Below are positions 87 to 8,120 of a stretch of DNA of 8,120 nt, piece after piece. Origin of the DNA: a virus (lineage: Duplodnaviria > Heunggongvirae > Uroviricota > Caudoviricetes). How positions within the stretch are numbered: position 1 is the stretch's first letter; each line of letters starts with the position of its first letter. Below the pieces are notes generated by a model. The model saw nothing but the letters and a program-made list of their open reading frames with translations. It was not told the origin of the DNA and made no database searches. The position numbers and the translations under genes were made by a program. Location of the stretch: IMG/VR virus record IMGVR_UViG_3300026224_000022. One strand, given 5' to 3'.

Positions 87-308
87 TCACAGATAAAACA
101 CTCTCCAGGAAACCCGGGGCGGTTCAAACTGCTCCAGCCACTGTTCTGTCGTGTTATAAACCCAGCGAATTCCGCCATGCTCAGTGCCTGAATTCGTTTC
201 ATTCAGCCAGTAATGAAGCTGCTGCAACACAATTGCCTCATTCAGACCAATACGGCATGCAAGATCACGATTTATCACAATGGGCTGGGATGTCATTAAC
301 AGGCTCAT
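87..308 (-). CDS. Small 73-aa protein, possible HTH/winged-helix DNA-binding protein (could be the N-terminal part of a replication-type protein)
   Basis: ATG at 308..306 preceded by AGAGG about 6 nt upstream; stop TGA at 89..87. Translation MSLLMTSQPIVINRDLACRIGLNEAIVLQQLHYWL... has a helix-turn-helix-like pattern. Codons in 201..239 are E. coli-like (CAG, CTG, GTG). Lies downstream of the cro/cII-position genes, where lambdoid phages carry replication genes. Confidence 0.55.
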   Translation of the reverse strand: MSLLMTSQPIVINRDLACRIGLNEAIVLQQLHYWLNETNSGTEHGGIRWVYNTTEQWLEQFEPPRVSWRVFYL

Positions 309-317
309 GACCGACCT

Positions 318-656
318 CTATTTCCCTGAATTTACGATGAAACTGTTCGAGCGGACTGAAGCATTCATGTTCATAGCCTTCACGGAGGTAGATAACCCGT
401 TGTGTTTCCGGCTCCCAACGAATGACTCTGACGGGCACTCCGTAGTGATCTTTGAACCAGCGGTTAACTTGTCGCAAAGGACTGTCTCCTTCTGCCGGTT
501 GAAATCCCCCACAGCCCACTCTGCAAAGCTGTGGGTTACAATTTCCCTGTCACCTGGTACATTCACTGCATAGCAATACTCCACCTTCGCTTTTCCACCC
601 GGTACAGGAAGCGCAATCAGTTGCGAGCGACGGTAGTGTGTTGTTAAACTGTTCAT
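318..656 (-). CDS. Hypothetical protein, 112 aa as drawn; the 3' half may be out of frame (see findings)
   Basis: ATG at 656..654 overlaps the TGA of the upstream gene (ATGA overlap), with GGAG about 10 nt upstream. The first ~60 codons use strongly E. coli-like codons (CGT, CGC, CTG, GCG, CCG). The last ~45 codons are Ser/Thr/Asn-rich with mixed rare codons, while the overlapping minus frame 265..519 looks more protein-like there. Confidence 0.45.
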
Positions 657-1294
657 GCGTTAGTTTCTCCACAACCAGAAGCAATCGACGCCACGACGCC
701 CGGAGCTGCACACTCGCGGGCGTTACTCTTTTCCGGCGCACAAAAAACACGAAATAACAGTGTTAAATGCTCCTGCCACTTCGCCATTACTTGGTAGCTG
801 TTCTCTTCGATTTGCTCACGCTCAGCTTGGTCAATAACTCCATCAGCAGTTGCCTTGCGTAAGTACTGGGAATGCTTGCCAATCCATTCTATTGACTCCA
901 TCAGCCGCTGATTAATGTCACCATTGTCAATGTCATCAATGACCACCAGCGGCACAAACACCCCATTACTACGACGGGCTATTGCATCCGTTACATGCCT
1001 GGTACCACTGGCATCCTGTAAAACCATGGCCCACTCAAGTGGAAAAATTTGATCCCCACCGCTACGCAGTCTGTTATGCAATTGATCTTTTGCTGGGGTG
1101 ATATCATCAGATTTATACAAACCAAGAATTTCTGCTGCTTCCTCATAGCCATGAGGTAAATCAGCAATCGTTCTTCGTATTGCTGCCACCAGCCATGCTG
1201 GTTGCTTATCAACTTTCCATTCAGGTTCTTTACCCACGTTTAAGCCCTCATATCTGTGGTTTCTGTAAATCGATTTATCCATTAGATTTTTCAT
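653..1294 (-). CDS. CII-position regulatory protein, 213 aa (possible phage CII/YdaT-type regulator)
   Basis: Long ORF immediately downstream of the cro-like gene on the same strand. I place the start at ATG 1294..1292 ([12 protein letters not shown]...), overlapping the cro 3' end; an alternative ATG is at 1282. The track start at 1351 lies inside cro and is unlikely. Functional call rests on position plus a weak by-eye resemblance to phage 186-type CII proteins; not verified. Confidence 0.7.
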
Positions 1295-2383: not shown

Positions 2384-2587
2384 ATGAACCGTTATTTCAC
2401 ATGCTCGTTTTGTGGCGCAAACGAGCTGCAGGCAAAAAAAATCATCGCCAAAGGCGGAAAAGATGAAGTTGCTATCTGCTCTGAGTGCGTAGTCTTGTGT
2501 GTCGGGGCATTAATCAATATCAGCACAACTATTCAGTTCACACCAAATGAGAATGCGCCTTTAGATGCGCGGAAATCTGGAGGTTAA
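2384..2587 (+). CDS. Small protein (67 aa) resembling the ClpX N-terminal C4 zinc-binding domain
   Basis: ATG at 2384 with AGAGAG 5 nt upstream (track start 2366 has no SD). MNRYFTCSFCGANELQAKKIIAKGGKDEVAICSECVVLCVGAL matches the ClpX ZBD pattern as I recall it (CSFCG ... K/R-x-I-A ... IC-x-EC-V-x-LC), with all four Cys present. No AAA+ module follows. Confidence 0.75.
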   Translation: MNRYFTCSFCGANELQAKKIIAKGGKDEVAICSECVVLCVGALINISTTIQFTPNENAPLDARKSGG

Positions 2588-2595
2588 AGAACAAA

Positions 2596-2871
2596 ATGAA
2601 AGTCCAGATTTTAAACAATAGTGGTGAAGTCGTTTGGTCATACGACATAGCCGCTCATGTAGATCAGAGCGGCGATAGCTGGACCAATGGGAAACATCAG
2701 ATTATGGCTGGAGTTGTGTTCTCTTTACGCCGTGCTTTAGAACAGGCTGAAGTCTTTCCATTAGACCCTGAATGGAAATGGCCTTTTTCTATTTGTCCAA
2801 ATTCGGAGAGTACATTTCAGAAAATTGGTCAGAAAGTCGCACTCGAAGAGCATCAGCCAACTGTTTCCTGA
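2596..2871 (+). CDS. Hypothetical protein, 91 aa
   Basis: ATG at 2596, 8 nt after the stop of the upstream gene; GGAGG at 2579..2583 gives a rather long spacing of about 12 nt. Protein-like composition. The 3' 83 nt overlap the convergent minus-strand ORF 2789..3034, so one of the two may be shorter or spurious. Confidence 0.45.
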   Translation: MKVQILNNSGEVVWSYDIAAHVDQSGDSWTNGKHQIMAGVVFSLRRALEQAEVFPLDPEWKWPFSICPNSESTFQKIGQKVALEEHQPTVS

Positions 2872-3034
2872 TTTTTTCAGGTAACTCGTCGGCATCGCAG
2901 AAACAACAACGCTCGATCATGTTGAAAGCCGATTCGTAGAACTGTTTCTGCTGAGTGTCGCTGAGACAGGAAAAGAGCGACGTTACGATGATTTTATTAA
3001 TTGCATTATCAAGTTCTTTTTCATCAAAAGTCAT
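2789..3034 (-). CDS. Hypothetical protein, 80 aa, opposite orientation within the plus-strand operon (moron-like)
   Basis: ATG at 3034..3032 with AAGGAA about 7 nt upstream on the minus strand; stop TAG at 2791..2789. Translation MTFDEKELDNAINKIIVTSLF...CCFCDADELPEKIRKQLADALRVRL... is protein-like. No homolog recognised. Confidence 0.55.
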   Translation of the reverse strand: MTFDEKELDNAINKIIVTSLFSCLSDTQQKQFYESAFNMIERCCFCDADELPEKIRKQLADALRVRLSDQFSEMYSPNLDK

Positions 3035-3129
3035 TTGATTTTCCTTTTATGTATACGGACTTAAAAGGATACCACCGAGCCTGAAGTGGTGAAAAGACAG
3101 GCACATAACAGCTAAGTATTTTCAACCAG

Positions 3130-3450
3130 AGAGAATCCTTAGCGTTGTGGTGAATGCGGCTCAGCGCACGCGGGTTAAGGTTGAGGCTGACAGTCGACCT
3201 TCTGTGGATACCCACCCGCCTGGTGTGCAACCTTCGCCAGGCACCGGGAGGCACCCGGCACCACAACTTTATGCTGTGTGTAGTCCTGGCGGTACCAGCT
3301 TGTACCATTGCTTCCGGCTGGTACCGTCCTTTTTACAAAACAGAGAAGAGCATCACCGGACGACGGGCTCATAACCCAATCCATCCGGGCGGCAGCCACC
3401 GCAGGTGTTCTTCTCTGTTTTGTGGAGAAACCAACCGACCTTGCAGGGTC
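3130..3450 (+). other. GC-rich, hairpin-dense non-coding region (candidate structured RNA or regulatory/terminator cluster)
   Basis: Local GC is much higher than the flanks. ORFs here are Arg/Pro-rich, overlap in all frames and lack SD. Stems: 3218..3225 with 3235..3242 (8 bp); CCGGG/CCCGG 3244..3258; 12-bp stem 3288..3299 with 3317..3328 followed by T5; 13-bp perfect inverted repeat 3337..3349 with 3409..3421. Confidence 0.4.
3288..3334 (+). terminator. Intrinsic-terminator-like hairpin with T-tract
   Basis: GGCGGTACCAGC (3288..3299) pairs with GCTGGTACCGTC (3317..3328), 12 bp with one G-U, 17-nt loop, then C plus TTTTT (3330..3334). Could be a terminator inside the early operon, or the 3' end of a small RNA. 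Confidence 0.5.
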
Positions 3451-3471
3451 GATATGATGAGGAGCAGCAAA

Positions 3472-3834
3472 ATGGCTAGCGAACGCAGTACTGATGTGCA
3501 GGCATTTATCGGGGAGCTGGACGGCGGCGTATTTGAAACCAAAATCGGCGCAGTTCTCAGTGAAGTCGCTTCCGGTGTGATGAACACGAAAACCAAAGGG
3601 AAGGTCTCACTCAACCTGGAAATCGAACCATTTGATGAGAACCGTGTGAAAATCAAACACAAACTCTCATATGTTCGCCCGACTAACCGCGGGAAAATTT
3701 CCGAAGAAGACACCACCGAAACGCCGATGTATGTCAATCGCGGTGGTCGCCTGACTATTCTGCAGGAAGACCAGGGACAATTACTGACTCTTGCCGGTGA
3801 ACCTGACGGAAAACTCCGCGCAGCAGGTCATTAA
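3472..3834 (+). CDS. yfdP: YfdP-like prophage protein, 120 aa
   Basis: ATG at 3472 with GAGGAG (3458..3463) about 8 nt upstream. The track ORF starts at 3154 but its upstream 106 codons run through the GC-rich region and are Arg-rich. The size matches the 120-aa YfdP I recall from K-12 CPS-53, and it sits immediately upstream of a YfdQ-like gene. Confidence 0.75.
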   Translation: MASERSTDVQAFIGELDGGVFETKIGAVLSEVASGVMNTKTKGKVSLNLEIEPFDENRVKIKHKLSYVRPTNRGKISEEDTTETPMYVNRGGRLTILQEDQGQLLTLAGEPDGKLRAAGH

Positions 3835-3899
3835 TATCGTTCTTAATTAACTGATTATTTATCTCATCACTGAATATCTTAATATAGTGAGGACTTATT

Positions 3900-4724
3900 A
3901 TGTCTCAGTACTTAGACGCAACCGCAATTAATCAAATCCAATCCCTTATTTCTGCTCAGGGTGTTAATGAAATTATCAGTAAGATTGGTGCCGATGCTGT
4001 GGCATTGCCTGAGAATTTCCGCATTCATGATCTGGAAAAATTTAATTTAAATCGTTTCCGTTTCCGTGGTTCACTTTCCACTGCCAGCATCGATGACTTT
4101 ACCCGTTATTCTAAAGATCTTGCAGATGAAGGCACCCGCTGCTTTATCGATGCCGATAATATGCGAGCCGTCAGTGTGCTTAACCTGGGTACTATTGATG
4201 AACCAGGTCACGCAGATAACACCGCCACTCTCAAACTGAAAAAGACAGCACCGTTCTCTGCTCTGTTGTCTGTTAATGGCGAGCGTAACTCCCAGAAGTC
4301 ACTGGCAGAATGGATTGAAGACTGGGCCGACTACCTTGTGGGCTTTGATGCTAATGGTGACGCCATTCAGGCAACCAAAGCGGCTGCGGCGATCCGTAAA
4401 ATCACAATTGAAGCGAACCAGACCGCTGATTTTGAAGACAATGACTTCAGCGGCAAACGCTCCCTGATGGAGTCTGTCGAAGCGAAGACCAAAGACATTA
4501 TGCCAGTGGCATTTGAATTTAAATGCGTTCCGTTTGAAGGTCTGAAAGAACGTCCGTTTAAATTACGCCTCAGCATTATCACTGGCGATCGTCCTGTACT
4601 GGTTCTGCGCATTATTCAGCTGGAAGCGGTGCAGGAAGAAATGGCTAACGAATTTCGTGATCTGCTTGTTGAGAAATTCAAAGACAGCAAAGTAGAAACC
4701 TTTATTGGTACTTTCACCGCCTGA
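3900..4724 (+). CDS. yfdQ: YfdQ-like protein, 274 aa (DUF-type prophage protein of unknown function)
   Basis: ATG at 3900 with TGAGGA about 7 nt upstream. Long ORF with good codon usage. Size and position match YfdQ of CPS-53 (recalled, not searched). Confidence 0.85.
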
Positions 4725-4736
4725 TTTCATTACTGC

Positions 4737-4758
4737 AAATGCCCCTGCGGGGGCATTT
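4737..4758 (+). terminator. Hairpin after the yfdQ-like gene (terminator/attenuator candidate)
   Basis: AAATGCCCC (4737..4745) pairs with GGGGCATTT (4750..4758) across a 4-nt loop, 13 nt after the stop codon. The T-run lies within the stem, so this is a weak or bidirectional terminator. Confidence 0.4.
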
Positions 4759-4851
4759 ATGGAAACGTAATTAACTCAATAATCACCGGATGGTGAGGGA
4801 TTCTTTTTAGCAGAATTCAGCGCGGTGCAGCGCATATACGTGGAGAACAAA

Positions 4852-5388
4852 ATGTCATTTATTAAAACTTTTTCCGGGAAGCATTTTTATTATGACAGGA
4901 TAAATAAAGACGACATCGATATTAACGATATCGCGGTTTCCCTTTCAAATATCTGTCGCTTTGCCGGTCATCTTTCGCACTTCTACAGCGTCGCCCAACA
5001 TGCGGTTCTTTGCAGCCAGCTGGTGCCGCAGGAATTTGCTTTTGAAGCGTTAATGCATGATGCAACAGAAGCGTATTGCCAGGACATTCCCGCACCACTG
5101 AAACGCCTTCTTCCTGACTATAAACGGATGGAAGAAAAAATAGACGCCGTAATCCGTGAGAAATACGGGTTACCACCGGTTATGAGTACGCCCGTGAAAT
5201 ATGCCGATCTCATCATGCTGGCAACCGAACGCCGCGATCTCGGGCTTGATGATGGCTCTTTCTGGCCTGTACTGGAAGGTATCCCGGCAACAGAGATGTT
5301 CAACGTGATTCCACTGGCTCCAGGCCATGCCTACGGGATGTTTATGGAACGCTTTAACGAATTATCGGAGTTACGCAAATGCGCATGA
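4852..5388 (+). CDS. yfdR: HD-domain phosphohydrolase, YfdR-like 5'-deoxynucleotidase, 178 aa
   Basis: ATG at 4852 with GGAG (4842..4845) 6 nt upstream; the track start at 4825 is GTG without SD. H...HD signature visible (SVAQHAVL ... ALMHDATEAY). Length 178 aa matches K-12 YfdR, which I recall as a characterised HD-domain 5'-deoxynucleotidase. Confidence 0.85.
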   Translation: MSFIKTFSGKHFYYDRINKDDIDINDIAVSLSNICRFAGHLSHFYSVAQHAVLCSQLVPQEFAFEALMHDATEAYCQDIPAPLKRLLPDYKRMEEKIDAVIREKYGLPPVMSTPVKYADLIMLATERRDLGLDDGSFWPVLEGIPATEMFNVIPLAPGHAYGMFMERFNELSELRKCA

Positions 5389-5741
5389 ATGTTTTCGAAA
5401 TGGAAGGATTTCTTCGCGGGAAATGTGTACCGCGAGATCTGAAAGTGAATGAAACGGATGCTGAATACCTGGTGCGTAAATTTGATGCGCTTGAAGCTAA
5501 ATGTGCAGCACTGGAAAACAAAGTAATACCAGTGTCAGCTGAACTGCCGCCAGCGAATGAAAGTGTTCTGTTATTTGATGCTAATGGAGAAGGCTGGCTG
5601 ATTGGCTGGCGTTCTCTCTGGTATACATGGGGGCAAAAAGAAACCGGAGAATGGCAGTGGACATTTCAGGTCGGGGACCTTGAAAACGTCAACATCACTC
5701 ACTGGGCAGTAATGCCAAAAGCACTGGAGGCTGGAGCATAA
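5379..5741 (+). CDS. yfdS: YfdS-like protein, 120 aa
   Basis: ATG at 5379 with GGAG (5366..5369) about 9 nt upstream; overlaps the yfdR-like stop (ATGCGCATGA). Size matches YfdS as recalled. Confidence 0.8.
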   Translation: MRMNVFEMEGFLRGKCVPRDLKVNETDAEYLVRKFDALEAKCAALENKVIPVSAELPPANESVLLFDANGEGWLIGWRSLWYTWGQKETGEWQWTFQVGDLENVNITHWAVMPKALEAGA

Positions 5742-6550
5742 TGACCACATTTACCGATAAAGAACTGATTAAAGAAATCAAAGAACGAATCAGCAGCATG
5801 GACGTGCGAGACAATGTTGAGCGCCGTGCTTATGAAATTGCTCTGGCATCGCTGGAAGAGGATCCGGTGGCATGGCTGCATTCAGACAATGGCTTAGGTA
5901 TTCCGGCAATAACCAGGAGTAAAAACATTGCTGACAGTTGGTTATCAAAGGGCTGGTATGTTCAGCCGCTATATATAGCCAAGCCAGTGCCGGTGGTGCC
6001 AGATGCTCGTCCGTCTTTAAATAATGGCATAGTCGGTTTTGATGAAGGCTGGAACGCCTGCCGCGCTGCCATGCTCTATGGTGCCGTACCTGCAAGCCAG
6101 GCTTACAAGTTGCCACAAACGCAGTTTAAACAGGTTGCTGACCTCTACGAAATGCAATTTGATGACGGTCGCACTTGTGCCTTTCACACTGATGCGCAAA
6201 AGGCTGTGCAATGGCTTCAGGCGTGCGACGGAAACAGGGTTCAGGAATACGTTAAGCTGGAACGATTGCAGAACGCACTGTCTGGCAACTCTCCGGTAAC
6301 TCCGGATGGTTGGGTTATGGTGCCGAAGAGACTAACAGCCGAGAACGGCGCTAAGGGGGCGCTATCCGGTGAATTTTCAGAAACTACGTTTATAAGCTGC
6401 CTGGAATGCTTTGGCGATGATGATTGCGATACCTGTGACGGGAGCGGACGTATTGAAATTAAAGTGCCAGTCACGTGGTCGACCATAAAATCTATCTGGG
6501 ATAAAGGTATCGAGTATTTTGCAGCAAAACCATCACAAGAGGTGAAGTGA
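5741..6550 (+). CDS. Hypothetical protein, 269 aa, with C-terminal CxxC...CxxCxGxG zinc-knuckle motif (full-length counterpart of the YfdT position)
   Basis: ATG at 5741 overlaps the upstream stop (TAATG), with GGAG 4 nt upstream. C-terminal CLECFGDDDCDTCDGSG (nt 6398..6448) is a DnaJ-type CxxCxGxG-like motif with four Cys. The K-12 gene at this position is only 101 aa, so this copy appears intact. Confidence 0.85.
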   Translation: MTTFTDKELIKEIKERISSMDVRDNVERRAYEIALASLEEDPVAWLHSDNGLGIPAITRSKNIADSWLSKGWYVQPLYIAKPVPVVPDARPSLNNGIVGFDEGWNACRAAMLYGAVPASQAYKLPQTQFKQVADLYEMQFDDGRTCAFHTDAQKAVQWLQACDGNRVQEYVKLERLQNALSGNSPVTPDGWVMVPKRLTAENGAKGALSGEFSETTFISCLECFGDDDCDTCDGSGRIEIKVPVTWSTIKSIWDKGIEYFAAKPSQEVK

Positions 6551-7122
6551 TGAACAACTTAATGATCGACCTTGAGACGATGGGGAAAAATAAGGATGCA
6601 CCGATCGTTTCCATTGGCGCGGTGTTCTTCACTCCAGAAACCGGAGACATCGGACAAGAATTCTATACGGTTGTTAGCCTGGAAAGTGCTATGGGGCAAG
6701 GAGCTACACCTGACGGCGATACCATCCTGTGGTGGTTGAAACAAAGCCCTGAAGCACGAGCTGCAATCTGTATTGATGATACTTTGTCGATCAGCGATGC
6801 TCTCTCAGAACTAAATCATTTCATTAACCGGCACGCAGACAATACGAAATATTTAAAAGTCTGGGGTAACGGAGCCACCTTCGACAACGTAATTTTACGT
6901 GGAGCTTATGAGCGAGCAGGACAAATCTGCCCGTGGGCATACTGGAATGACCACGATGTACGCACGATCGTTACGCTTGGGCGTTCCATCGGATTCGACC
7001 CCAAAATGGACATGCCTTTCGATGGCGAACGGCACAACGCCCTGGCTGATGCCCGTCATCAGGCAAAATATGTTTCCGCTATCTGGCAGAAATTAATTCC
7101 TGCCACCAGCACAGAATTATGA
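6550..7122 (+). CDS. DEDDh-type 3'-5' exonuclease, 190 aa
   Basis: ATG at 6550 overlaps the upstream stop (TGATG), with GAGG about 7 nt upstream. Motifs MIDLET (Exo I: D, E), WGNGATFDNVIL (Exo II: D) and HNALADARH (Exo III: H...D) are present. In K-12 CPS-53 only a 46-aa fragment (ypdJ) remains here, as recalled. Confidence 0.85.
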   Translation: MNNLMIDLETMGKNKDAPIVSIGAVFFTPETGDIGQEFYTVVSLESAMGQGATPDGDTILWWLKQSPEARAAICIDDTLSISDALSELNHFINRHADNTKYLKVWGNGATFDNVILRGAYERAGQICPWAYWNDHDVRTIVTLGRSIGFDPKMDMPFDGERHNALADARHQAKYVSAIWQKLIPATSTEL

Positions 7123-7158
7123 TTTTCCCGGGTGCAGCCGGTTTTGATGGAGAAAATT

Positions 7159-7440
7159 ATGAACACCTTGTTTTTACTGATGGCTGAATTCAATACCCCT
7201 AACATTGAACTCTCAGCAGTTAGCCAAAAGTACTTTGGCATGAGTCCAGCCACGGCAGAAGCAAAAGCAAACGCTTGTAAGTTGCCCGTTCCAACATATC
7301 GCATCGGCACATCACAAAAAGCAAAACGTTGCATCAATATTCAGGATCTTGCGGAATACATAGACAAAAGACGAGAAGAAGGACGTATCGAGTGGGAACA
7401 GGTCAGAACAAGCAAACAGAAGGGCAAAGAACATCACTAA
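7159..7440 (+). CDS. PrtN-family / excisionase-like small DNA-binding protein, 93 aa
   Basis: ATG at 7159 with GGAG (7149..7152) 6 nt upstream; the track start at 7132 is GTG. N-terminus MNTLFLLMAEF... and a basic C-terminal half resemble PrtN-type pyocin activator/excisionase-like proteins (by-eye, from memory). It is the last gene of the plus operon, in the same terminal position torI occupies in KplE1. Confidence 0.7.
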   Translation: MNTLFLLMAEFNTPNIELSAVSQKYFGMSPATAEAKANACKLPVPTYRIGTSQKAKRCINIQDLAEYIDKRREEGRIEWEQVRTSKQKGKEHH

Positions 7441-7446
7441 ATAAAA

Positions 7447-7468
7447 AACCCGCCTAAAGGCGGGTTTT
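7447..7468. terminator. Bidirectional rho-independent terminator
   Basis: AAAAAACCCGCC-TAAA-GGCGGGTTTT: 6-bp GC stem CCCGCC/GGCGGG (7449..7454 with 7459..7464) flanked by an A-run and a T-run. Lies between the convergent stops at 7440 (plus) and 7488 (minus). Confidence 0.75.
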
Positions 7469-7487
7469 CAAAAAGCACCAGCTATGA

Positions 7488-7661
7488 TCATGCTGCTTTG
7501 CGACGACGAAGCTTACCCTGCTGCTCTTTACCAGAGACAGTAGCGTGAGTGAACGCATTAGGAGCAGCCTTCATCAGAACTTCAACAGCAGCACCCATAC
7601 CTGCGAATGCTTTCATTGTGTCGAACTTAACCTGTGGCTTGGTTGCTTTTTGATCTTCCAT
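7488..7661 (-). CDS. Small protein, 57 aa, Ala/Lys-rich (absent from the ORF track, below its length cutoff)
   Basis: Hand translation of the minus strand: ATG at 7661..7659 with AGGAG 6 nt upstream; MEDQKATKPQVKFDTMKAFAGMGAAVEVLMKAAPNAFTHATVSGKEQQGKLRRRKAA; stop TGA at 7490..7488, followed by the bidirectional terminator. Confidence 0.6.
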   Translation of the reverse strand: MEDQKATKPQVKFDTMKAFAGMGAAVEVLMKAAPNAFTHATVSGKEQQGKLRRRKAA

Positions 7662-7700
7662 AGAAAACTCCTGAAGTTATACCGAAACAATTCCTGTTGT

Positions 7701-8120
7701 TTACTCATCATCAATAGATGATACGCAATATTTATTTTTAAATTTAAGGTTCTTTGGCGTAACTTCATCAGAGATATCAAAACCGTCCAGAATTCTATTG
7801 AATGTAGCTTCTGGCATATCATCATGAACAGAAATCTCACCCGATCGCTGCTTTCTAACCATGTTATCCACTCGCCAAATTATAGCTTCAGCGTAAACAA
7901 CATAACTTGGATGCTTGATAAAGCGATGATCACCAGAATTCAAGACGCAAGACGGATCGTGGGGGACACCATCCTTGATACTAGAAATATTAACAACTAA
8001 AACACAATAACAATCGTTAACGGGGTAATAAACAGGATCATTACAAATCACATGAAGATGATTGCATGGCCCAGTTGGGGCAAGCACAGTTCCTTTCCTG
8101 TATGGCTGATAATCCGTCAT
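7701..8120 (-). CDS. Hypothetical protein, 139 aa or longer, AT-rich gene
   Basis: ORF begins with ATG exactly at the window edge (8120..8118), so the true N-terminus and RBS may lie outside. Stop TAA at 7703..7701. AT-rich codon usage unlike the prophage core. Several Cys/His (GPCNHLH, NDCYC, DPSC); no family recognised. Confidence 0.6.
   Translation of the reverse strand: MTDYQPYRKGTVLAPTGPCNHLHVICNDPVYYPVNDCYCVLVVNISSIKDGVPHDPSCVLNSGDHRFIKHPSYVVYAEAIIWRVDNMVRKQRSGEISVHDDMPEATFNRILDGFDISDEVTPKNLKFKNKYCVSSIDDE

Follow-up and report, generated by a model that had tools for sequence, protein, structure and literature searches.

The yfdPQRS, fifth-gene and exonuclease block of an SfV/mEp460-like temperate phage and its relation to the Escherichia coli K-12 prophage CPS-53

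Gene content and junctions of the block

The IMG/VR virus record IMGVR_UViG_3300026224_000022 (Caudoviricetes) comprises 8,120 nt, and the term window is used here, as in an earlier note on this DNA, for that whole stretch. The block under study lies at positions 3472-7122, where the listing of open reading frames (ORFs) revealed six intact genes, all on the + strand, i.e., yfdP, yfdQ, yfdR and yfdS, a gene for a protein of 269 amino acids (aa) and a gene for a DEDDh 3'-5' exonuclease. The block is probably the distal part of a PL-type early-left operon, under repressor control, of a temperate lambdoid E. coli phage resembling SfV, mEp460 and ST64B, and in our opinion it consists of three independently reassorting units rather than of one machine. 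The genes, together with a hairpin and the adjoining excisionase gene, are as follows.

3472-3834, + strand: yfdP, 120 aa, 99% identical to K-12 YfdP, phrog_204, ribosome-binding site (RBS) GAGGAG
3900-4724, + strand: yfdQ, 274 aa, DUF2303 (PF10065, E 1.7e-92), 98% identical to K-12 YfdQ
4738-4760, no strand given: GC-rich hairpin AAATGCCCC-TGC-GGGGGCATTT, perfect over 9 bp, read from the sequence
4852-5388, + strand: yfdR, 178 aa, HD-domain phosphohydrolase/DnaA-binding protein, 98% identical to K-12 YfdR, phrog_318
5379-5741, + strand: yfdS, 120 aa, 97.5% identical to K-12 YfdS, phrog_583
5741-6550, + strand: gene for a 269-aa mosaic protein of Ea22/DUF551-like build, allele at the K-12 yfdT position, phrog_60/5117/660
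6550-7122, + strand: gene for a DEDDh 3'-5' exonuclease, 190 aa, Rv2179c-like (PF16473, 251.8 bits, E 4e-75)
7159-7440, + strand: gene for a PrtN-family excisionase, 93 aa (PF11112, E 4e-23; phrog_1300 'excisionase')

The same six frames are annotated by RefSeq in the prophage of E. coli LR-46, which is 99.6% identical to window positions 2575-8120, and all six proteins belong to populous phage PHROG families (204, 210, 318, 583, 60 and 255). The start of yfdR was taken as 4852; a GTG at 4825 is an upstream alternative that carries no annotation. The open frame at 3154-3471 was considered as an N-terminal extension of yfdP and was rejected, as homology to K-12 starts at 3453 and the ATG at 3472 has a strong RBS in front of it; the STnc100-like structured RNA of that interval, described below, is a further reason.

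The overlapping stop and start codons listed by the earlier note for the last four genes were all found, namely ATGCGCATGA at 5379-5388 between yfdR and yfdS (10-nt overlap), TAATG at 5739-5743 between yfdS and the 269-aa gene and TGATG at 6548-6552 between the latter and the exonuclease gene (1-nt overlap each). Such coupling is restricted to these four genes. A gap of 65 nt separates yfdP from yfdQ, and one of 127 nt, containing the GC-rich hairpin, separates yfdQ from yfdR. The hairpin is conserved in K-12, inside a stretch of 96.5% identity, and it may be a weak terminator, an attenuator or a processing or RNA-stability element that sets yfdPQ apart from the coupled yfdR-exonuclease genes. 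From the overlaps a fixed stoichiometry had been deduced. The other arm of the LR-46 prophage has 17 pairs of neighbouring genes on a common strand, and 9 of these pairs overlap (hand count from the annotation table); overlaps so common across the prophage are therefore a weak argument for a special stoichiometric complex. Moreover, the fifth gene and the exonuclease were found to reassort freely relative to the core, which contradicts a six-gene machine of fixed stoichiometry.

Family searches and comparisons with the K-12 proteins upheld the earlier assignment of the first four products to YfdP, YfdQ, YfdR and YfdS, as well as the HD domain of YfdR. The HD dyad of YfdR is located at residues 68-69, and the protein aligns to the HD protein of PDB entry 2gz4 (E 3e-14) with AQH, HDA and D conserved. 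Kinship of YfdR to T5 Dmp was expected and is not claimed here; in a tblastn search of phage records with YfdR, the rows sampled from the whole ranking included no match to T5. YfdS consists of an N-terminal segment and a weak DUF551-like C-terminal domain (E 0.0075, under the Pfam cut-off). YfdP had no match in the local Pfam copy, and its AlphaFold2 model, with one helix and three long beta-strands at a predicted local distance difference test score of 75, gave no informative match in a fold comparison. YfdQ passes the PF10065 cut-off (309.9 vs 26.6 bits, profile positions 2-269 of 269), and the structural neighbours of its AlphaFold2 model were uninformative. By sequence, it is homologous to PDB entry 9o7m, 'YfdQ Protein' (E 1.8e-45), an entry whose release postdates April 2026; its 36 chains of a YfdQ homologue (274 aa, ~40% identity) suggest a large YfdQ assembly. 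A literature search for 9o7m found no paper, and a search of the PDB sequences with the YfdP family profile, made to look for a YfdP homologue in that entry, gave no match. A DUF2303 protein has also been detected in the virions of Burkholderia phage JC1 (PMC9144972).

The block occupies the position of the Rec module, and it could be envisaged as a non-canonical recombination or repair module replacing Red/Erf, in which YfdP and YfdQ would bind or anneal DNA and the exonuclease would provide the nuclease. LLS-type phages with the cluster have no known recombinase, and Rec modules can include DnaQ-like 3'-5' nucleases (PMC12315714). In addition, deletion of yfdQ in K-12 causes weak sensitivity to methyl methanesulfonate (PMC4776307), and in phage JC1 the DUF2303 protein adjoins RecT/YqaJ (PMC9144972). 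However, searches of Pfam and PHROGs assigned no recombinase family to any of the six proteins, and the models of YfdQ and YfdP show no similarity in fold to an annealing protein. The cluster is also carried by phages with a complete separate Rec module, is neither limited to Rec-less phages nor universal among them and is listed as lying outside Rec modules, and 3'-5' exonucleases usually inhibit recombination (PMC12315714). We consider a recombination module very unlikely.

Comparison with the K-12 prophage CPS-53

Window positions 3453-5858 are colinear with 9586-11991 of the K-12 locus at 96.5% DNA identity; this is the whole extent of the K-12 homology, which ends 118 nt into the fifth gene. 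In CPS-53 the genes encode proteins of 120 (yfdP), 274 (yfdQ), 178 (yfdR), 120 (yfdS), 101 (yfdT) and 46 aa (ypdJ), followed by torI. The earlier note had given the lengths of 101 and 46 aa correctly, and had interpreted them as a truncated fifth gene and an exonuclease fragment, respectively, in a K-12 copy that would be a decayed remnant of an intact module. Pairwise comparison supported the homology of yfdP, yfdQ, yfdR and yfdS to their K-12 namesakes and went against this interpretation. YfdP, YfdQ, YfdR and YfdS are full length in K-12, lie in the same order and orientation and are 99, 98, 98 and 97.5% identical to those of the window, which therefore carries a cluster of the CPS-53 type rather than the sound version of a decayed one.

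Regarding the fifth gene, residues 1-42 of the 269-aa protein align with K-12 YfdT (81%), while the middles are unrelated, and the two proteins are thus not orthologous over their whole length. The 3' boundary re-converges at the last few codons (QEVK-stop/RBS), with CAAGAGGTGAAGTGATG in the window vs CAAGAGGTGAAATAATG in K-12 relatives. The 101-aa YfdT was found at the same length in many genomes, e.g., in prophages at argU (strain PS10-3) and thrW (O157:H7), and in both of these it is followed directly by a helix-turn-helix (HTH) gene and the integrase, with no exonuclease.

As for ypdJ, no similarity of its product to the exonuclease was detected by blastp or tblastn. In O157:H7, yfdT is followed by a gene for an HTH_17 protein of 144 aa, and YpdJ matches residues 1-46 of this protein at 91% identity. 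YpdJ is thus a stub from the N-terminal end of an excisionase-like gene of the HTH_17 type, and K-12 carries no exonuclease remnant. In the relatives, the HTH_17 gene starts at an ATG that overlaps the yfdT stop, where K-12 has ATA, and the K-12 sequence leaves its relatives 18 codons after this ATA, at the point where the torI segment joins. Given the lost start codon and the loss of homology, ypdJ as annotated is very likely not a real protein. At the yfdT/ypdJ junction (12170-12260 of the K-12 locus, L002 in our numbering), the annotated gene shares 85 nt with yfdT, in a different frame. Older annotations called ypdJ an 'exisonase remnant', and this may explain the 'exonuclease' of the earlier note. 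Judging from these alignments, only the excisionase-like gene appears to be broken in K-12, and YfdT-101 is a full-length alternative allele.

Distribution of the units and linkage of the exonuclease to the excisionase

The occurrence of the genes was surveyed in 80 IMG/VR viral loci encoding E. coli-type YfdQ, which were retrieved by YfdQ alignment and are all of a 98-99% identical type. YfdP-Q-R-S were present in 50 loci and YfdP-Q-R without YfdS in 27. The commonest variant was that with YfdT-101 (27/80); in 22 of these 27 loci the next gene is the HTH_17 xis-like one and in 3 it is TorI. The exonuclease was found in 19 loci and the arrangement of the window in five. Among 5426 complete E. 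coli genomes, the four-gene core is carried, at a coverage of at least 80%, by 2446 (~45%) and the entire six-gene block by 88. An identical block (98% identity) is present in the plaque-forming phages PhiR40_1, PhiR55_1 and PhiR47_1, and mEp460, cdtI and Shiga toxin (Stx) phages keep the core with other cassettes between yfdS and the exonuclease. The yfdP/yfdQ/yfbR(yfdR) cluster was also reported to be common in a 2025 survey of lambdoid early-left regions, in which YfdP and YfdQ are listed as of unknown function (PMC12315714). The immunity region of the window (cro, cI) is unlike that of the LR-46 prophage, which is 99% identical elsewhere (window 303-1260 vs 1261-2574). Among the complete E. 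coli genomes of the collection, the best match covers 90% of the window, and none extends over its full length. It represents a further mosaic variant of a locus that is already known, i.e., a very common mosaic early-left segment of SfV/mEp460-like temperate phages.

The last gene of the block encodes, as had been proposed, a DEDDh 3'-5' exonuclease. It passes the PF16473 cut-off by a wide margin (251.8 vs 27 bits) and carries the motifs D7-x-E9 and H162-x4-D167; the middle catalytic Asp (GATFD) is a tentative assignment taken from the DexA alignment. Its closest solved relative is PDB 8kel (T4 dexA), with E 8e-11 over 140 residues. In 19 of 19 exonuclease-bearing loci the gene is followed by the PrtN-type excisionase at a constant spacing of 40 nt, and it is missing from every one of the 26 loci whose excisionase is of the HTH_17 or TorI type. 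It lies between 1.2 and 3.6 kb from yfdR. In genetic terms, the exonuclease is part of the operon's excisionase end and not of the yfd core. Its fixed pairing with the excisionase, the variability of the fifth position and the variable distance from yfdR thus point to a build of three units.

These data bear on the view that the six genes constitute a single ancestral module of fixed stoichiometry, acting in nucleotide-pool or DNA-end processing and decayed in K-12. The genes are indeed adjacent, with coupling among the last four, the K-12 gene sizes agree with those of the earlier note, and the entire CPS-53 is a cryptic prophage that has undergone erosion (PMC7498339). However, the K-12 part of this view is already refuted, YpdJ being an HTH_17 stub unrelated to the exonuclease and YfdT-101 a widespread full-length allele. 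Moreover, the exonuclease assorts with the type of excisionase instead of the core, and the arrangement of the window is rare compared with the core (88 vs 2446 genomes). We give very little credence to such a module.

It may also be asked whether the exonuclease and YfdR act in succession in nucleotide disposal or salvage, the former producing deoxynucleoside monophosphates from oligonucleotides or nicked host DNA and the latter dephosphorylating them, which would reshape the deoxynucleoside triphosphate pools of the lytic cycle. The homology of the exonuclease to T4 DexA is consistent with this, and YfdR carries the HD residues and is labelled 'deoxyribonucleoside 5' monophosphate phosphatase' (phrog_318) and 5'-deoxynucleotidase (RefSeq). 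However, YfdR falls slightly below the Pfam cut-off for YfbR-like proteins (PF12917, 24.2 vs 25.9 bits) and far below the NCBIfam equivalog cut-off (NF003009, 19.9 vs 122 bits), and its nucleotide affinities are described as much weaker than YfbR's in the part of PMC4776307 that cites Zimmerman 2008. No exonuclease is seen in 58 of the 77 YfdR-bearing loci of the 80-locus sample, some of these 58 being on short contigs, nor in any of the 26 loci that have an excisionase of the HTH_17 or TorI type. A salvage pathway of this kind seems unlikely.

The 269-aa protein occupies the variable position. Its C-terminus, CLECFGDDDCDTCDGSG, forms a zinc-ribbon-like cysteine cluster, CxxCxG-x3-CxxCxGxG, to which the zinc knuckle of the earlier note corresponds. 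Segments of this protein recur in more than 6900 database relatives. The breakpoints are located close to residues 42, 112, 198 and 234, and in many of the relatives DUF551 takes the place of its C-terminus. The protein had no match at all in the local Pfam copy or in NCBIfam, and thus none to an Ea22 model. Its Ea22-like resemblance is segmental, as phrog_60, 5117 and 660 each match only part of the sequence; a DNA patch at window 6094-6313 is common to genes named 'ead/Ea22-like' by RefSeq, and phage records label the 269-aa gene Ea22. Ea22 proteins have been described as mosaic, with DUF551 as a portable domain, and the segmental sharing found here fits that picture (PMC10834534). A hypervariable mosaic slot with so many relatives is typical of arms-race loci, and a counter-defence role could be imagined, in which the HD hydrolase and the DEDDh nuclease would destroy guide RNAs or the nucleotide signals of host immunity, with the fifth gene tracking the diversity of host defences. 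Early expression and a generic DEDDh match in PADLOC are compatible with this idea. However, the PADLOC scan gave no specific defence or anti-defence family, the match being to a general Cas-associated DEDDh profile (E 2e-5), and there is no experimental hint in favour of it. We regard counter-defence as quite improbable.

Regulation, proposed function and relation to known systems

The earlier note placed the block where lambdoid phages carry recombination or anti-host functions, and its position in the early-left operon of a lambdoid prophage is supported. A cI-like S24 repressor gene is located at 1573-2199, in the same direction as the block, and it is followed by a terminator-like hairpin at 2218-2249 and by the elements listed below.

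2227-2285, + strand: operator-like ACTAAG...TTAG motifs, two copies (at 2227 and 2263) overlapping the PL-like promoter
2253-2281, + strand: PL-like promoter TTGCCA-17-TAGATT after the cI-like gene, matched in a sigma-70-like promoter scan
3114-3337, + strand: STnc100/PasD-like prophage small RNA (sRNA) element (Rfam RF02076, full model, 42.4 bits with a gathering score of 47, E 1.6e-7)

The operator-like motif, ACTAAG-N(4-6)-(C)TTAG(T), occurs in four copies, the other two lying between cI and cro, at 1486 and 1535 (1486-1557), and all four may be OR and OL sites for an immunity of this type. The promoter at 2253-2281 would be the PL/OL equivalent driving the block. Between it and yfdP lie a ClpX-type zinc-finger ORF, a 91-aa ORF and a structured GC-rich element. 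The zinc-finger ORF (2366-2587, + strand) lies immediately 3' of the repressor gene and the PL-like promoter. It encodes 73 aa that include a C4 zinc finger of the ClpX type (PF06689, E 1.4e-10; phrog_5259) and has no annotation in the RefSeq record of the near-identical prophage; its product could modulate ClpX or an adaptor. The structured element lies in a GC-rich region (3072-3461, 55%), whose folding compared with shuffled sequences gave z = -6.7 on the + strand and -3.7 on the - strand. It ends in a 13-bp hairpin and a U-run, i.e., an intrinsic terminator, ~135 nt 5' of yfdP, and read-through of this terminator is therefore probably needed for transcription of the block. STnc100 is reportedly related to the PasD sRNAs (bioRxiv 10.64898/2026.05.13.724894). 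Of the 5426 E. coli genomes, 2786 carry the element at 95-99% conservation, under the label 'frameshifted hypothetical protein' or, in K-12 e14, as ymfH, and these protein annotations are probably wrong. A tRNA scan and an Rfam search at the gathering threshold over the whole window found nothing.

At the other end of the window, a hypothetical gene at 7701-8087 (- strand) adjoins a Panacea-domain gene beyond the window end (16302-17290 of the locus numbered L001), where the prophage ends by a dusA fragment. The two are probably a toxin-antitoxin pair of the PanA type, and in PhiR55_1 this position is occupied by YafO/YafM-like genes.

The function of the core has been addressed experimentally in K-12, and the earlier statement that no role is established for these proteins is outdated. 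Multicopy yfdQ and yfdR together with yfdS or yfdT suppress over-initiation mutants and inhibit initiation at oriC in wild-type cells and in vitro, with yfdQ being required and yfdP dispensable, and YfdR binds DnaA via domain I (Phe46), competing with DiaA and DnaB (PMC4776307). The authors proposed a host takeover role in the ancestral phage, similar to that of lambda P, and noted homologues in phage SfV (PMC4776307).

According to the three-unit reading that we favour, the first unit would be the conserved yfdP-yfdQ-yfdR(-yfdS) core, the K-12 copies of which inhibit initiation of the host chromosome. YfdQ plus YfdS or YfdT are needed for the initiation block in vivo, with YfdR competing at DnaA domain I, and in the live phage the core would most likely serve the takeover of host replication after induction or infection, as also suggested by the authors of PMC4776307. 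The second unit would be a hypervariable slot for modular proteins of the Ea22/DUF551 type, filled here by the 269-aa protein and in K-12 by YfdT-101, and the third the DexA/Rv2179c-like exonuclease, which would travel with the PrtN-type excisionase of the integration module. The conserved stop/RBS/start junctions would provide translational coupling and double as recombination joints. K-12 CPS-53 would then represent the commonest alternative arrangement, i.e., core, YfdT-101 and an HTH_17 excisionase-like gene.

Several points weigh against this reading. The DnaA/oriC effect is seen on overproduction only, and a K-12 yfdQRST deletion is without a replication phenotype (PMC4776307). As YfdP was dispensable in the oriC assay, no role is assigned to it. 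The census loci are closely related E. coli phages, and the exonuclease-xis linkage may thus reflect shared descent rather than shared function. Finally, the PL assignment is based on consensus motifs, and the terminator-bearing sRNA-like element stands between the promoter and yfdP.

A bolder proposal is that YfdQ, YfdR and YfdS, perhaps with YfdP, form a large oligomeric particle that would sequester DnaA domain I and switch the host from chromosomal to phage replication and, as a separate matter, that the DexA-like exonuclease would be an undescribed accessory factor of PrtN-type excision, as its 40-nt linkage in 19/19 loci may suggest. Taken together, these two ideas are decidedly unlikely.

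Since the core occurs in ~45% of complete E. coli genomes and its DnaA-binding activity has been published, the significance of the locus beyond annotation hygiene is slight. The corrections gained are that YfdT is a bona fide allele, that YpdJ is a dead excisionase stub and that the exonuclease groups with the PrtN-type excisionase. Regarding the natural role of YfdQRS in the shut-off of host replication, inducible phages such as PhiR55_1 or mEp460, in which the block is intact and controlled by a repressor, are better models than the cryptic CPS-53.

Among known systems, K-12 CPS-53 (KpLE1; Noguchi & Katayama 2016, PMC4776307) has the same yfdP-S order, lengths and junctions, and its fifth gene shares the first 42 codons and the 3' boundary. 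It differs in that this gene encodes 101 aa, that a broken HTH_17 gene (ypdJ) and torI are found where the window has the exonuclease and the PrtN-type excisionase, and that 5' of yfdP it has no repressor gene, PL region or STnc100-like leader. The E. coli 5'-deoxynucleotidase YfbR has the HD fold and the metal-ligand residues in common with YfdR. Unlike YfbR, YfdR fails the equivalog threshold, and the K-12 protein, whose nucleotide affinity is reportedly much lower, has a separate DnaA-binding activity. T4 DexA and the Rv2179c-like exonucleases of Mycobacterium tuberculosis (PF16473) resemble the window exonuclease in the DEDDh motifs, the single domain of ~190-230 aa and in being phage-encoded. 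The homology to DexA is only distant, and the substrate may be DNA or RNA; in contrast to T4 DexA, the gene is linked to an excisionase and not to genes for host-DNA degradation.

The lambda Ea22/exo-xis region is comparable to the 269-aa gene with respect to the early-left position, the mosaic build and the portable C-terminal domains (DUF551 in some variants), as well as to the acidic nature of its proteins (isoelectric point of the 269-aa protein, 4.9). Unlike lambda Ea22, the 269-aa protein matches no curated Ea22 model and has a Cys4 zinc-ribbon-like C-terminus, and the similarity is seen via PHROGs and DNA patches only. With regard to whole phages, LLS and ST64B carry YfdR/Q/P homologues of 67-77% identity, which are more divergent than the other versions. 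In mEp460 the same core and the same exonuclease-xis end are found, and five other small genes (Ea22-like, DUF551 and others) replace the 269-aa gene. In PhiR55_1, the identical six-gene block is followed by the same excisionase as in the window.

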